From the NCBI GenBank assembly GCA_011064725.1, contig JAAKFQ010000001.1, positions 1,650-65,649 on the forward strand: DNA of 64,000 bases, in the 5' to 3' direction. Made by a program: the position numbers and the translations under genes. Positions 20,489 through 58,230 of the stretch are shown piece by piece. This DNA comes from Chlamydiota bacterium (lineage in GTDB: Bacteria; Chlamydiota; Chlamydiia; Chlamydiales; JAAKFQ01). The notes under the pieces are model-generated. The model worked only from the letters and a program-made list of their open reading frames with translations. It had not been told where the DNA came from and did not search any database. Numbering within the stretch: position 1 is the first letter of the stretch; each line of letters opens with the position of its first letter.

Positions 20489-20646
20489 TTGATGTGATGC
20501 GAAAAATCCAATTTAGAGGAAGAGCGAAAGGGGCAAGATACAAGTATTGCTCGGAAGTTCAACTCCATGAGAGTTGGACAAGGAGCAATGCAAAGTAGGT
20601 TGCTCCTTGCAGCCTTCCTATAGGTAGGATTTTTGCGTTACATCGA
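20489..20646 (-). mobile_element. Family-A MITE copy A6 (158 bp)
   Basis: TIRs ttgatgtgatgcgaaaaatcc / ggatttttgcgttacatcga and central hairpin caactc..gagttg. Flanks ttgacaa/ttgatac (5/7). Overlaps the lgt stop codon. Confidence 0.85.
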
Positions 20647-21495
20647 TTGATACCTCAAGCGCTTAGAATAAATAACAAAGAAAACACCAAGCAATACAAT
20701 AGGAAGACTCAATATTGCGCCCATATTTAAAAAAGGCACATGCCAAAGGCTTTGCTCTAATTTGAAAAATTCAGCAATAGCTCTAAAGGTAAACATATTA
20801 ATTAAAAAGAGCCCACTGAAAAATCCCCTACCCTTATTTTTCAATTTTCGAAAAAGCGCTATAAGGACAAAAGCGCTGATTAAATAAAAAAATGCTTCGT
20901 AAAGCTGTACAGGATGACGTGGAACAAAAGGTGTTGCTCCTGCAGGGTTGCCAAACCTAACCGCCCAAGGCAAGGTTGTTTCTGTACCCATAATTTCTTG
21001 ATTCATAAAGTTTCCAGCACGTATAAAAAAGCTGGCAAACCCAATACTAACAGCGATGAGGTCAAAGAAAAACAAGCTGCTAAGGCCATACAATCGATCT
21101 TTGTAGATACGGCAAAAAAGCAAAATGCTTAAGACGATTCCAATCACAGCTCCATGTGAGGCAAGCCCTCCTTCCCAAGTCATAGGTATCTCCCAAAGGC
21201 GGTGCTTGAAATAGGCCCAATCATAAAAAAAGACGTGAAACAATCTAGCTCCAACAATAGCACCCACCATCACATACAAAAAGATCTTTTCATAAGAAAA
21301 CTTATGGAAAGCCAGTATTTCTTTTTTTTCTTTGTCTTTGAAGGCAGGAAAATCATTCAATAAAAACTGTTTGTACAGTTTTTGCAGAACAAACAAACTC
21401 AACATGCAACCAACAGCAAAAAAAATCCCATACCATGCAATGGGCCTATTAAAAAAAGGTATGTAAAATGCAATAGGATCTGGATTAAAGATCAT
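20638..21495 (-). CDS. lgt: Prolipoprotein diacylglyceryl transferase
   Basis: IAWYGIFFAVG N-terminal signature, HPVQLYEA motif, multi-TM. Confidence 0.85.
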   Translation of the reverse strand: MIFNPDPIAFYIPFFNRPIAWYGIFFAVGCMLSLFVLQKLYKQFLLNDFPAFKDKEKKEILAFHKFSYEKIFLYVMVGAIVGARLFHVFFYDWAYFKHRLWEIPMTWEGGLASHGAVIGIVLSILLFCRIYKDRLYGLSSLFFFDLIAVSIGFASFFIRAGNFMNQEIMGTETTLPWAVRFGNPAGATPFVPRHPVQLYEAFFYLISAFVLIALFRKLKNKGRGFFSGLFLINMFTFRAIAEFFKLEQSLWHVPFLNMGAILSLPIVLLGVFFVIYSKRLRYQSM

Positions 21496-21977
21496 GATTT
21501 TCCTCCACTTTCAGAATAGGTTTTTACAGCTTTGCTAAATTGAAAATAGAGCGCGCTGCCATTTAGAAGCCCTATGCCGACTGTCAGCATAACAAAAGCC
21601 TTTACATCTTGAGGGATATGTAAAAGACGCAAAATAAGCCCTAAAGAGAGCATACAAAAAACTAAAAGGTAAAATGTCACAGGATAAAGTTTTTTTAAAA
21701 CAACAGGATTTTCCATTTTTAAGAGTTTTGATGTCATTTTCTTTACCATGCGCATCAACAAAAAACGCGCTTTTAAAAACCCCAAAATCATTGCGACTAA
21801 GAAAAGAACAAAAAAGCCCATTTCTTTTGCAGGAAAAAGAGGCAAAATCCAAAGGGTTGTATCTTGCATTTCATACGCTTTAAAAAAAAACACAACGCCA
21901 CTCACAACTAAGAATAAGCCAATAAAAAACCAAATAATACCTGTGAGCCTAAGCGCTTGAGAATGTTTAAGCTTCAT
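21492..21977 (-). CDS. Membrane protein, unknown function
   Basis: 161 aa with 4 hydrophobic segments. 4-nt overlaps with mgtE and lgt suggest one operon. Confidence 0.45.
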   Translation of the reverse strand: MKLKHSQALRLTGIIWFFIGLFLVVSGVVFFFKAYEMQDTTLWILPLFPAKEMGFFVLFLVAMILGFLKARFLLMRMVKKMTSKLLKMENPVVLKKLYPVTFYLLVFCMLSLGLILRLLHIPQDVKAFVMLTVGIGLLNGSALYFQFSKAVKTYSESGGKS

Positions 21978-56006: not shown

Positions 56007-57996
56007 CTGGCCATCCTTCTTTTGTTAAAAGTTTAGGGTTTTCCCTTATAGGTTTTTTCACATTTTCTTCAAATAATTCTAAAAACTTATTTACATCTCC
56101 TTCAGCTCTAATAGCTGCCTCCTCCATCTCTTCTAAAACAAATTCGTGATAAGCATGAGGATGTCTTCCCACATGCTCCATCATCTCTTTATTCCAGGAG
56201 TCTTCTAGATTTAAGCCAAATGGTTTGACGACTTTATTCATTTTTTCAGTAAACCTTGTCATATGCTTATTTGTTGCGAAGTGGTGGGTTTGATCAGGTT
56301 TTAATTTAAAAATTGGAATTGACTTTAATGTGACCCCATCAAGTTTCATAGAAGCTTCTATGGCTCGTTTGAGCCTTTTAATATTGTGCAATTTCTTTCC
56401 TATGCTATTTGCGGCTTTGACGGTTCTAAGTGCTGCAGATACTTTGGTGATGAATTTAAAAGTCAAAATATTAATAGCCAATCTAGTGATTTCTTTGGTT
56501 GTCATAAAACCAATAGTTTGAGCAACTTCTTTTGATGAGAGCATCTCCCATTCGGTTGAGAGTTTTCTATATTCTGGAGAATAATCTTGTGCAATTTCTT
56601 GCCAAGAATGCGTATTCCAATATTCTCGAATATCCTTTCCCATCCGCCAGCCAGATTGGAGCGTATCAATAGGTTGAAAGATCAAAGATCCAACAGCATA
56701 AACAATATCCTTGACACTGAGGATGAGTTCAATGCTCTCTTCCTTAATACCTACAACAACACCCAACAAAGCTCCATTGATACTTCCAGAAACCCTACCA
56801 ACACCTGTTGCTTCCAAGATAATAGGAGAATCTACAAAAGAAATTTCAGGAGGATTTGCTTCGAGATCGGCTAGAACTTTTTGAAGAATAGCTTCTTTAT
56901 CTTCAGGATTTTGTTCAATTGATTTAGAAAGGGTGTTAATCGTATTTTGAAAGGCACTAGGCTGAGAAATAGATCCACACTGAGAACATAAAAAGAGTTT
57001 GTCTAGGTGTTCTTTTCCATAGGTCATAATAAGATCAATGCCTTTTATAGCATTGGAAAAATCGCCTTTTTGAAAGAGCAGAAGGCTTCTTTCCCATAGT
57101 AAAGAAAGATCATCCGAATTAGTCACACTTTTAACAACACCATTTTTTGCTCTTTCTTTAGCCTCTAGATATTCATTTCGAGCAATGTCTACAGCTTCTT
57201 CATCTTCCTCATCGGGCTTGTAACAATAGTTATACCTTTCAATGGCTTTTTCATATTTTACTTTGGCATCATCAACGATTTCCCAGTAGAGAAAATTTTC
57301 AAAAAAGCTGTCATATGCTTTGATGAAAATACTCCCAAGTTGTTCGTCAAACGCTTCTAAAAATTGCAAAGTTTGAGGTCCTTTTTCAAAAATAAAGTTT
57401 TTGGACCATTCAACATTTTTACATTGGTCATTTTCTAATAAACTTTTTTCATAAAGCATTCTATGTTTTATAGAATCATGGAGTAAGCAGATAAGAGCAT
57501 GGTAAACACTGTATTTCATTTGCTTTTTCATGTTGAAGTAAGTATCGGCCGCTTTTTCTGGTATTTCAAATCGATAATCTCCACAATCAACCGTCCAAGT
57601 TTCATCTATCTCATCTTCATCACCTCCAGAAATTACGTCCCACAAATCATCTCTTAAACCTGGAATACTTTCTAAAAAATCCTCTAGAAAATCTCTTTGA
57701 CTAATAAATGAGCTTAGTTCCATCAGACCTTTGTGTATCATTTCCATTCCATCTTTACATGTCCAATAACTACACTTTTCTCTAACTTCAAAAGGATTTT
57801 GTTCATAACGATTTAAAAGGCGTGAAAGAGATTTTGAAGGTTTATAATATGAAGAGTTTGTACGTTCGTTCTTTAAAAAGCATGCTTGGCAAATCTCTTG
57901 AATGGTATTGTCTGTATTTTTTGCAACATTTTCATCTGTTTGCAAATCATAATAAGTTAAAGGCGATAAAGAAGATGATTGAATTTCCTGACTCAT
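55999..57996 (-). CDS. Polymorphic-toxin-like protein with a C-terminal HNH/EndoVII 'AHH-type' nuclease motif
   Basis: …DQTHHFATNKH…(28 aa)…GLNLEDSWNKEMMEHVGRHPHAYHEFV fits the [AST]HH…N…H.G.HP..Y..V pattern of AHH/SHH toxin nucleases. Long helical N-terminal region with no signal peptide. ATG start at 57996 (track TTG at 58011). Confidence 0.6.
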   Translation of the reverse strand: MSQEIQSSSLSPLTYYDLQTDENVAKNTDNTIQEICQACFLKNERTNSSYYKPSKSLSRLLNRYEQNPFEVREKCSYWTCKDGMEMIHKGLMELSSFISQRDFLEDFLESIPGLRDDLWDVISGGDEDEIDETWTVDCGDYRFEIPEKAADTYFNMKKQMKYSVYHALICLLHDSIKHRMLYEKSLLENDQCKNVEWSKNFIFEKGPQTLQFLEAFDEQLGSIFIKAYDSFFENFLYWEIVDDAKVKYEKAIERYNYCYKPDEEDEEAVDIARNEYLEAKERAKNGVVKSVTNSDDLSLLWERSLLLFQKGDFSNAIKGIDLIMTYGKEHLDKLFLCSQCGSISQPSAFQNTINTLSKSIEQNPEDKEAILQKVLADLEANPPEISFVDSPIILEATGVGRVSGSINGALLGVVVGIKEESIELILSVKDIVYAVGSLIFQPIDTLQSGWRMGKDIREYWNTHSWQEIAQDYSPEYRKLSTEWEMLSSKEVAQTIGFMTTKEITRLAINILTFKFITKVSAALRTVKAANSIGKKLHNIKRLKRAIEASMKLDGVTLKSIPIFKLKPDQTHHFATNKHMTRFTEKMNKVVKPFGLNLEDSWNKEMMEHVGRHPHAYHEFVLEEMEEAAIRAEGDVNKFLELFEENVKKPIRENPKLLTKEGWPDG

Positions 57997-58071
57997 AGCT
58001 CCAAAAGACAATATTGAGGTCCATTCTATAAAAAGGAAAAAAGATCTTCAAGAAGTACTTTCGATAATTAA

Positions 58072-58230
58072 CTGACCTTACGCGATAAATCCAGTTTATA
58101 GAAAGGCTGCAAGGAACGATCTACATCGTATTATTCTTCGTCCAACTCTCATAGAGTTGAACTTCTGAGTAATACTTGTATCTCTTACCCTTAGCTCTTC
58201 CTCTAAACTGGATTTAGTGCGTAACATCAG
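58072..58230 (+). mobile_element. Family-A MITE copy A5 (159 bp)
   Basis: TIRs ctgaccttacgcgataaatccagttta / taaactggatttagtgcgtaacatcag. Flanks taattaa/taatcaa (6/7). Lies in the divergent region between the toxin gene and the HEAT lipoprotein gene. Confidence 0.85.

Follow-up and report, generated by a model that had tools for sequence, protein, structure and literature searches.

The 64,000-nt stretch of chlamydial contig JAAKFQ010000001.1 that we analyzed (the window) contains seven copies of a short, non-coding element of about 158 bp, which reached their positions by insertion and which belong to a family whose evolution has been constrained to preserve a hairpin (about 47 pairs) in one particular strand. 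Taken as a whole, the data are probably best explained by a non-autonomous MITE that enters its targets by staggered insertion, is mobilized in trans by a DDE transposase, and is subject to a one-strand hairpin constraint. The host is an uncultured marine-sediment Chlamydiota bacterium, represented by a metagenome-derived MAG that encodes an anaerobic ribonucleotide reductase. A first-pass annotation of the window had spoken of a reduced intracellular-type genome, whereas this free-sediment chlamydial MAG is not obviously reduced.

An nhmmer profile built from the six full copies gave full-length matches in the window with E-values of 1e-41 to 1e-48 and also recovered an internally deleted copy (E 2e-12). 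The covariance model returned the same set, and neither search detected further copies in the window. The seven coordinates of the first-pass annotation (six full-length copies plus the one with an internal deletion) were thus all correct, and the HMM and covariance scans that it had proposed recovered all of them, with other copies only outside the window. A search with the 21-nt terminus found 6 sites in the window and none in shuffled sequences. Directly outside the window, there are 2.5 copies, and about 33 additional copies were found on SDBV01 contigs from one Loki's Castle sediment metagenome, giving a total of about 42 copies at a density of about one per 7–9 kb. In the window, four copies have one orientation and three the opposite one. 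The family has a GC content of about 43% and includes tandem as well as partial copies.

The alignment of the copies confirmed the common termini CTGAYSTTACGC...GCGTAAYATCAG and the central CAACTC-loop-GAGTTG hairpin that had been described before, on which the imperfect palindrome formed by the whole element is centered. The terminal inverted repeats form an outer helix of 23 pairs (alignment columns 1–30 with 141–168), in which 96% of the cells are paired. With 157–161 nt, full-length copies are well within the usual MITE size (below about 400 bp), and they contain no transposase or conserved ORF, as every candidate reading frame across the copies is broken by indels in the central loop; the earlier claim of no coding capacity is therefore correct. 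Terminal inverted repeats, a target-site duplication, and multiple dispersed copies, which are further characteristics of MITEs, were each found. The previous MITE interpretation is thus supported by a small, non-coding, multi-copy, intergenic element with terminal inverted repeats and real duplications.

The first copy (20489–20646, plus strand, 158 nt, full length, nhmmer E 1e-45) scored 155.8 bits with the covariance model on the plus strand versus 48 bits on the minus strand and folds with −80.4 versus −54.0 kcal/mol, the plus strand being the better-folding, purine-rich one. Its terminus contains the stop codon of lgt (20638–20640, minus strand). The internally deleted copy of 90 nt (23575–23664, plus strand, nhmmer E 2e-12, 54.1 bits with the covariance model on the plus strand) consists of the outer arms only and is located between mgtE and the TPR gene, which are divergently oriented. 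The other five copies are full-length and were detected by nhmmer and by the covariance model. The third copy (32687–32844, minus strand) occupies precisely the interval that separates two metal-dependent hydrolase genes, which are tandem paralogs, and is flanked by TCACCAA and TTACCAA (6/7). The fourth copy (39764–39920, plus strand) begins directly 3′ of the RNase HIII gene, whose TAA stop codon is included in the left TTCTTAA duplication (39757–39763); together with the right one (39921–39927), this is a perfect 7/7 direct repeat. The fifth copy (47790–47948, minus strand) lies where hemW and the pentapeptide-repeat gene converge, with TTATTTGA (47782–47789) on its left and TTATTAAC (47949–47956) on its right side, and the pentapeptide-repeat gene now stops at the TGA in the terminal CTGA of the element (47945–47947). 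The sixth copy (50059–50217, minus strand) is found in the intergenic region of the divergent aldolase and DUF3604 genes and has TTATTTAA on both sides (50051–50058 and 50218–50225). It is followed by the 13-nt sequence CTGACGGCAAAAC (50226–50238, plus strand), which has no counterpart in the syntenic relative L021 and whose start resembles the terminus of the element, so that it may be what is left of a second copy after most of it was deleted. The seventh copy (58072–58230, minus strand) is positioned between divergent AHH-toxin and HEAT-repeat genes, is flanked by TAATTAA and TAATCAA (6/7), and has its nearest relative on contig L008. The flanks quoted in the first-pass annotation for the fourth and sixth copies, as well as the 6/7 matches of the third and seventh, were correct.

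The flanks were compared with permuted left/right pairings. Over 32 copies, the flanks in a 7-nt register match at 4.62 of 7 positions on average, compared to 3.50 in the permuted pairings, and none of 5000 permutations reached the observed value (p<1/5000). Perfect 7/7 flanks occur in four of these 32 copies, with 0.6% expected. The flanking repeats claimed before therefore exceed permuted controls, and the proposed length of 7–8 bp can be refined to 7 bp, sometimes 8, at an AT-rich target of approximately TTWWTAA that often includes a stop codon. The element inserts at such targets by a staggered cut that generates these duplications. The bases abutting the element are A and T in 32 of 32 copies each. 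They may therefore be part of the element, in which case the duplication would measure 5–6 bp. About 23% of the duplication positions are mismatched, as estimated from the flank permutation data, whereas only 5.3% of the stem cells are unpaired. The duplications thus look more decayed than the stems, and simple neutral decay after insertion is inadequate as an explanation.

Insertion is directly seen in the comparison with L021, the closest syntenic relative, whose aldolase shares 84% amino acid identity with that of the window. The 21 kb of L021 contain no copy of the element by nhmmer (E<=1) or by the covariance model, whereas the counterpart in the window has four. At the site of the fifth copy, the two convergent genes overlap by 8 nt in L021, and this overlap is the only TTATTTAA present there; at the site of the sixth copy, one TTATTTAA lies within otherwise alignable sequence. 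The gene junction that harbors the fourth copy is 21 nt long in L021 and 200 nt in the window. In addition, the copy on L008 interrupts another repeat family as TTAAGAA[element]TTAAGAA, where intact repeats have TTAGAAA or TTAGGAA once. The comparison of orthologous loci, which had been named as a possible refutation, therefore shows empty sites and insertion.

The copies occur in divergent, convergent, and co-directional intergenic contexts at a ratio of about 10:9:19, as expected under random insertion. Seventeen of the 42 copies are within 10 nt of a gene 3′ end or overlap it, and at least one gene now terminates at a stop codon within the element. Since the target motif is often found at stop codons and the element also carries stop codons in its ends, many copies are flush with gene 3′ ends and leave the genes intact. 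The mean identity between copies is about 71%, and the highest identity of any two copies is 90.6%, which was found for the seventh copy and the copy on L008. With this ceiling for copy pairs, there is no visible recent activity, and the family is old and diverged and does not represent a recent burst.

The palindrome noted before is indeed present, and we can add that it is maintained by compensatory changes and on one strand only. The hairpin comprises 47 pairs, with 94.7% of the cells paired and double (compensatory) changes at 28 of the 47 pairs, and none of 500 shuffles reached the observed values for pairing and double changes. RNAalifold predicted a structure for only one of the strands (−43.8 kcal/mol), and in all 32 copies this favored strand had the lower free energy. 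G·U cells outnumber A·C cells by 176 to 32. Among pair states common to at least four copies, 61 are Watson-Crick, 19 are G·U, and 2 are A·C, whereas singleton states are nearly equal (12 G·U versus 13 A·C). The 15 closest pairs of copies differ by 83 wobble steps and 12 compensatory changes, as opposed to 29 breaks. Internal loops are also conserved, with near-invariant columns in GAUACAAG opposite GUAGA. This strand-specific folding does not depend on how a copy is oriented to genes or to GC skew: relative to co-directional neighbors, the well-folding strand is sense in 8 and antisense in 11 cases, the bias is found in antisense (G·U 59 versus A·C 9) as well as in sense copies (31 versus 6), and the orientation with respect to GC skew is 16:14 and thus not biased. 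The asymmetry also exists with DNA energy parameters (−30.6 versus −24.7 kcal/mol). The family has therefore evolved under a constraint that keeps the hairpin on this strand, and the constraint does not appear to serve the neighboring genes. Selection for folding on a particular strand is not expected from a DDE mechanism of cut-and-paste with double-stranded DNA. We infer that the well-folding strand is important in single-stranded form (RNA or ssDNA) for the propagation or persistence of the element.

A rival reading is that the copies primarily function as structured RNAs, kept by the host as dispersed small-RNA genes or as cis-acting mRNA stabilizers, processing sites, or terminators, with mobility being only the route by which they arrived; such a role has been suggested for bcr1, ERIC, and Correia elements. 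The strong covariation, the marked predominance of G·U relative to A·C, the conserved internal loops, the apparently better preservation of the stems than of the flanking duplications, and the RNA fold of the fifth copy (−65.8 kcal/mol, z −8.5) agree with it, and bcr1 is reported to be transcribed and to show compensatory changes at the RNA level (PMC3184786). However, the folding strand is randomly oriented to co-directional genes, antisense copies show the same strand bias, and a quarter of the copies lie between divergent genes. No conserved promoter could drive transcription of the entire hairpin; a single promoter-like motif exists, but it is located on the opposite strand and faces outward, and promoter-like sites are not more frequent than in shuffles. 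A T-tract terminator signature is absent, and Rfam gave no match at gathering score in the window and none even at E<=1 on three copy-bearing loci. We therefore regard a host-kept RNA as unlikely, albeit with a real chance of being correct.

There is a slightly smaller chance that either a folded one-strand intermediate, RNA or ssDNA, is needed for spread in combination with duplication by a staggered cut, or that all copies give rise to the same structured RNA from their own signals, irrespective of the genomic context. If true, the folded-intermediate route would combine hairpin recognition with DDE-like target duplication of 7–8 bp, and we know of no described bacterial IS family that does so.

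It is improbable that the element moves as ssDNA by an HUH/Y1 enzyme that recognizes the one-strand hairpin, as for IS200/IS605-derived palindromes or REP/RAYT. That the hairpin is conserved on one strand irrespective of the transcription context, and that the asymmetry persists with DNA parameters, would fit such an enzyme, but IS200/IS605 and REP/RAYT systems have neither a target duplication nor terminal inverted repeats, and the empty sites demonstrate duplications of 7–8 nt with variable sequence. Moreover, transposition of lagging-strand ssDNA predicts an orientation bias, in contrast to the GC-skew ratio observed, and no Y1 transposase domain was detected in the ORFs scanned with Pfam. 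An IS200/IS605-derived palindrome was rejected on the basis of the terminal inverted repeats, the duplications, and this unbiased orientation. REP sequences are described as GC-rich palindromes of 20–40 bp with a GTAG or CGTC head and without target duplication (PMC3733652). The element is about four times as long (158 nt), has about 43% GC, starts with CTGA without GTAG/CGTC heads, and has target duplications, so membership in REP/RAYT was rejected as well.

A SINE-like mode, with reverse transcription of an RNA of the well-folding strand at nicked AT-rich sites and duplications arising from staggered nicks, is very improbable. Selection for a strand-specific fold would act on the propagating lineage, and the AT-rich target and a duplication length of 7 or 8 nt are compatible with it, but both ends are precise and mutually inverted copies as in DDE substrates, there is neither a 3′ tail nor a 5′ truncation series, and the Pfam-scanned ORFs contain no reverse transcriptase. 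We know of no bacterial precedent for such RNA-mediated copying. An ancestral intergenic regulatory or terminator element with chance flanking repeats in AT-rich DNA, for which only the age and divergence of the copies and the many imperfect flanks could speak, is the least probable explanation, being refuted by the empty sites in L021, by the permutation test, and by the copy that interrupts another repeat.

Returning to the MITE reading, the element would be moved in trans by a DDE transposase encoded elsewhere. The scanned ORFs of the window contain no transposase domain in Pfam or NCBIfam, in agreement with the first-pass annotation. A six-frame search of 287 kb with a regular expression for the IS4-type-specific YREK motif, Y(2)R(3)E(6)K, gave only one chance match, in a 715-aa ORF, which is weak evidence for absence as the 287 kb are only a fraction of the genome. 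Within this same fraction, no autonomous IS with the MITE termini was found by searches for solo or paired termini and by the YREK scan. The ISPepr1 subgroup of the IS4 family has 5′-CT ends with the consensus YT-AA-YTT---A, direct repeats of 7–8 bp, and AT-rich targets (Table 1 in PMC2266710). The CT ends, the duplications of 7–8 bp (possibly 5–6 bp), and the AT-rich target of the element fit this subgroup best, and CTGATGTTACGCA matches 6 of 8 conserved consensus positions, with mismatches at positions 5 and 9, a match to which no significance can be attached. We treat this assignment as a lead only, and it is weak because it is based on three generic features and the consensus match and includes no transposase. 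Unlike the MITE, ISPepr1 elements are 1.5–1.6 kb long and encode a DDE/YREK transposase.

One of the closest analogues is bcr1 (group A bcr) of the Bacillus cereus group, a non-coding, intergenic element of about 155 bp with tens to more than 100 chromosomal copies, short AT-rich direct-repeat flanks, locations that differ between strains, a long stem kept by compensatory changes, and no known cognate transposase (PMC3184786, PMC6542083). Size, lack of coding capacity, intergenic location, AT-rich direct repeats, and the compensated long stem are shared with the chlamydial element. However, bcr1 has a fixed 5-bp TTTAT duplication, in contrast to the variable sequence of 7–8 bp (5–6 bp if the A and T belong to the element), and it occurs in Bacillota and is known to be transcribed, whereas the chlamydial MITE is known from DNA sequence. 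General MITE features are also shared with the Correia/ERIC class (PMC3184786).

Correia elements of Neisseria and ERIC/IRU of Enterobacteria are imperfect palindromes of 100–160 bp with terminal inverted repeats that are intergenic and present in high copy number. To our knowledge, they fold as long RNA hairpins, and their transposase has not been identified. They duplicate TA only, in contrast to the 7–8 bp found here, and their effects depend on the orientation in the mRNA, whereas the strand bias of the chlamydial element is independent of gene orientation. All these elements are regarded as functional analogues only, compared here by their features and duplications.

Full-text literature searches found no description of a MITE in Chlamydiae or Chlamydiales, and neither repeats nor transposons are mentioned in the two papers with which this metagenome was released. 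The family is thus previously undescribed and possibly the first in its phylum; it is of an ordinary kind, with an unusually strong hairpin constraint. As the strand pattern is independent of the orientation of transcription and replication, it cleanly separates selection in the life cycle of the element from selection exerted by a function for the host, a distinction that has remained unsettled for elements of the ERIC, Correia, and bcr1 types. As a practical aspect, ends of short-read contigs fall inside copies of the MITE, and such contig breaks will affect estimates of genome quality for these lineages.

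The ~158-bp element is a mobile, non-coding sequence with the inverted termini CTGAYSTTACGC, and its copies are flanked by a short staggered duplication of an AT-rich target (consensus ~TTWWTAA). The repeat copies described in the first-pass annotation were readily recovered: the 21-nt terminus matched six sites in the window and none in shuffled sequence, and a profile trained on the full-length copies, c1 (20489-20646), c3 (32687-32844), c4 (39764-39920), c5 (47790-47948), c6 (50059-50217), and c7 (58072-58230), found all six at E-values of 1e-41 to 1e-48. The profile also found the internally deleted copy c2 (23575-23664) and nothing else in the window, and a covariance-model scan returned the same set. 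The element is asymmetric, with alignments to these models scoring ~100 bits higher in one orientation than in the other; c3, c5, c6, and c7 share one orientation, and c1, c2, and c4 have the opposite one. No ORF was conserved across the copies, in agreement with the earlier view that they lack coding capacity.

Three independent lines of evidence agree that the copies are insertions. The first comes from the 32 copies with flanks, in which 4.62 positions on average matched between the 7 nt on the left and the 7 nt on the right, compared to 3.50 in permuted pairings; the observed 4.62 was attained in none of 5000 permutations. Among these copies, four had perfect 7/7 duplications (0.6% expected), and an 8-nt register suited two. 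The bases abutting the element are invariant (A in 32/32, T in 32/32) and may belong to the element itself, which would shrink the duplication to 5-6 bp; a 7-bp duplication is favored, as T at -7 and A at +7 are both enriched above background. A TA-duplicating (IS630-type) reading was ruled out by the base at position -2, which is A in 24 of the 32 copies.

The second line consists of orthologous empty sites, which the first-pass annotation had named as a check on the duplications. The closest relative compared, the JGI contig L021 (84% aldolase identity), is syntenic with the window at ~38.8-62 kb and contains zero copies of the element by profile and by covariance model. At the c6 site, the relative aligns as ...GGTTTTCCATTTATTTAA joined to ATTGTTGAA..., and the window reads ...GGTTTTCCATTTATTTAA, c6, TTATTTAA...AATTGTTGAA... 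In the case of c5, hemW and the pentapeptide gene converge in the relative and overlap by exactly 8 nt, TTATTTAA, and this octamer is found in slightly decayed form on either side of c5 in the window. The gene junction at the c4 site measures 200 nt in the window versus 21 nt in L021. In the window, the right duplication of c6 is immediately followed, at 50226-50238, by CTGACGGCAAAAC, which begins like the element terminus, is missing in the relative, and may have been left behind, as a remnant or footprint, by a second copy at the regenerated target. Comparable short terminus fragments adjoin copies outside the window at L011 1449 and L014 6117, and the tandem copies at L002 6039-6364 have one 8-nt spacer in common.

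A paralogous empty site is in agreement as the third line. The copy at locus L008 sits within a member of a second repeat family, ACC-TTAAGAA-[element]-TTAAGAA-TAGCC, and uninterrupted members of that family (at locus L017 and at window 17470-17640) contain a single TTAGAAA or TTAGGAA. This second intergenic family is unrelated to the element; its copies are ~110-150 nt long, ~90% identical, and carry the hairpin GGAATGG-CCTTTTGA-CCATTCC (window 17493-17604, L008 1547-1646, L017 10556-10666).

A degenerate pattern matching all six full copies had no match in 185,579 species-representative genomes or in viral contigs, but hit 19 stretches of a single metagenome assembly, SDBV01, from sample GS10_PC15_940 of Loki's Castle sediment. 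These loci carry 33-35 additional copies, and the repeats are the only sequence that they have in common with the window. As copies have a mean identity of 0.71 whether they are compared inside the window, inside the SDBV01 loci, or between both sets, they form one intermixed family and, judged from these sequences, would most simply derive from the same organism. A further 2.5 copies lie on the same scaffold immediately beyond the window end, and one short-read contig starts and stops inside element copies. A blastn search of 72,556 plasmids with the element consensus found none, a search for relatives via the MgtE neighbor in the 185,579 representative genomes yielded no confirmed case, and Rfam gave no family, either for the window at the gathering score or for three loci at E<=1. 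The gene content of the window indicates an uncultured member of the Chlamydiota as the source: it includes genes for RNase HIII, for a class I aldolase (NGX30702.1, on a 70-kb contig and annotated as a MAG protein of a Chlamydiae bacterium), for the anaerobic ribonucleotide reductase NrdD with its activase, and for a kinase of the Pkn1 type that is fused to an FGE-sulfatase domain.

With respect to genes, the element occurs between divergent, convergent, and co-directional neighbors in a ratio of 10:9:19, close to the 1:1:2 expected of random intergenic insertion. In 17 of 42 copies, a gene 3' end is at most 10 nt away or the gene extends into the element: the RNase HIII gene ends with a TAA within the c4 duplication, lgt with a TAA within c1, and the pentapeptide gene with the TGA of the terminal CTGA of c5. 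This placement fits a TAA-containing target plus purifying selection against intragenic insertions. At window 31763-33837, c3 exactly fills the gap between two tandem paralogous metal-dependent hydrolase genes, and as the predicted TTG start of the downstream gene adjoins the element, the insertion may have displaced the true start and the promoter of this gene. A terminator or promoter role was rejected, since the counts of such sites were the same as in shuffles; the sole promoter-like motif inside copies, TTGAMC-16-TATCTT, belongs to the strand that folds poorly, and the final base of its -10 part varies.

The purine-rich strand of the element folds into a 47-pair hairpin of -43.8 kcal/mol in RNAalifold, and 28 of the 47 pairs show double (compensatory) changes; no consensus structure was obtained with RNAalifold for the complementary strand. 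Paired cells amounted to 94.7%, compared to 88.3% in column shuffles and ~42% with slid partners, and all five pairing measures exceeded all 500 shuffles. The free energy of single copies was better on the purine-rich strand in 32/32 cases (means of -69 versus -50 kcal/mol), with an RNA fold z of -8.5 for one copy, and the asymmetry was smaller but still present with DNA parameters. We counted 176 G·U cells, distributed across 31 column pairs, versus 32 A·C cells, a comparison subject to ascertainment bias because the pair set was derived on the favored strand. When symmetric internal-loop positions were included, the counts were ~189 versus 61, with one fixed column pair supplying 25 of the 61 A·C cells. 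Pair states common to at least four copies comprised 61 Watson-Crick, 19 G·U, and 2 A·C, and those present in a single copy were unbiased (12 G·U, 13 A·C, 27 other). Stem differences between the 15 most similar copy pairs consisted of 83 wobble steps and 12 compensatory changes versus 29 breaks. There are also near-invariant unpaired stretches, such as GAUACAAG opposite GUAGA, and conserved G·A oppositions.

In co-directional contexts, the well-folding strand is sense in 8 and antisense in 11 cases, so that there is no orientation bias relative to genes, and the G·U:A·C excess exists in both classes (31:6 in sense, 59:9 in antisense copies). Orientation relative to GC skew is likewise unbiased (16:14). 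The fold constraint is thus imposed neither by read-through host transcripts nor by the replication strand, and seems to be a property of the lineage of the element itself. The fold is under strand-specific selection. Decay seems to have gone further in the duplications, where we estimate that ~23% of positions are mismatched, than in the stems, where 5.3% of cells are unpaired; possible reasons are selection in situ, AT-rich flanks that evolve faster and are prone to indels, or a detection bias against decayed copies.

We propose that a DDE transposase acting in trans would mobilize the element. In line with the earlier view that the window has no such gene, no transposase domain was detected among its ORFs scanned with Pfam or NCBIfam. 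A regex scan of the 287 kb examined gave no credible IS4-type YREK protein, and a search for an autonomous partner via solo termini gave short fragments only, plus one copy split by ~720 bp (L006 2128-3005), with ~15 nt of the element duplicated at both junctions. This insert contains no transposase; of its two ORFs, one (57 aa) weakly matches LuxR/HTH, and the other, for a small membrane protein (89 aa), weakly matches the Ldr type-I toxin. No Pfam domain was detected in an ORF of 372 aa that adjoins two copies at the end of the scaffold. The ISPepr1 subgroup of IS4 is a lead to the mobilizing transposase family and not a membership claim. The other families known to make ~8-bp duplications begin with G or A, not with CT. 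In Table 1 of De Palmenaer et al. (2008; PMC2266710), ISPepr1 is listed with 5'-CT ends, 7-8 bp direct repeats, and AT-rich targets, and with the end consensus YT-AA-YTT---A, with which the element end CTGATGTTACGCA agrees at 6/8 conserved positions.

The least exotic reading of the strand-specific fold is that only copies able to fold, either as single-stranded DNA in replication or repair or as RNA, would be efficiently mobilized or retained. Movement by a single-stranded DNA (HUH) enzyme and spread via an RNA intermediate both have a low probability, because the inverted termini and the duplications count against them. An attC-like nature was dismissed by inspection, as the GTTACGC...GCGTAAC cores are ordered opposite to R''/R', cassette arrays are absent, and duplications exist.

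Among known elements, bcr1 of the Bacillus cereus group is the closest functional likeness, and the Correia and ERIC elements are close as well; our element differs from all three in duplication length and host phylum. bcr1 is ~155 bp long, its direct repeats are short and AT-rich, its fold is preserved at the RNA level by compensatory changes, and it has no known transposase (PMC3184786, PMC6542083). Full-text literature searches found no report on MITEs in Chlamydiae, and the papers releasing the SDBV01 metagenome nowhere mention repeats. The interest of the family lies mainly in its copy density and in the unusually clean, context-independent evidence for strand-specific structural selection.

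The window has further features of note. The minus strand carries a cassette of three genes (54843-58011), with c7 at its edge: an ORF of 196 aa, a gene for an immunity protein of the Imm11 family (55470-56006), and one for a protein of 670 aa that has an AHH nuclease toxin domain at its C terminus (55999-58011). The cassette has the appearance of a polymorphic-toxin module that was inserted; L021 is without it and has the flanking methyltransferase and HEAT genes 47 nt apart. Also missing from the otherwise collinear L021 is a gene for a Sel1-repeat protein with seven repeats (43509-44375, minus strand). At 25614-28654, yidC is followed by a dnaA-family gene (27392-28654), which is presumably a second dnaA paralogue and not part of an origin region, because the GC skew, negative throughout from ~4 kb to the window end, does not change sign there. 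Finally, a 210-aa ORF on the minus strand (31174-31806) has a DOT1-like domain of the histone-lysine methyltransferase type (E = 8e-8), a eukaryote-like domain in a chlamydial genome.
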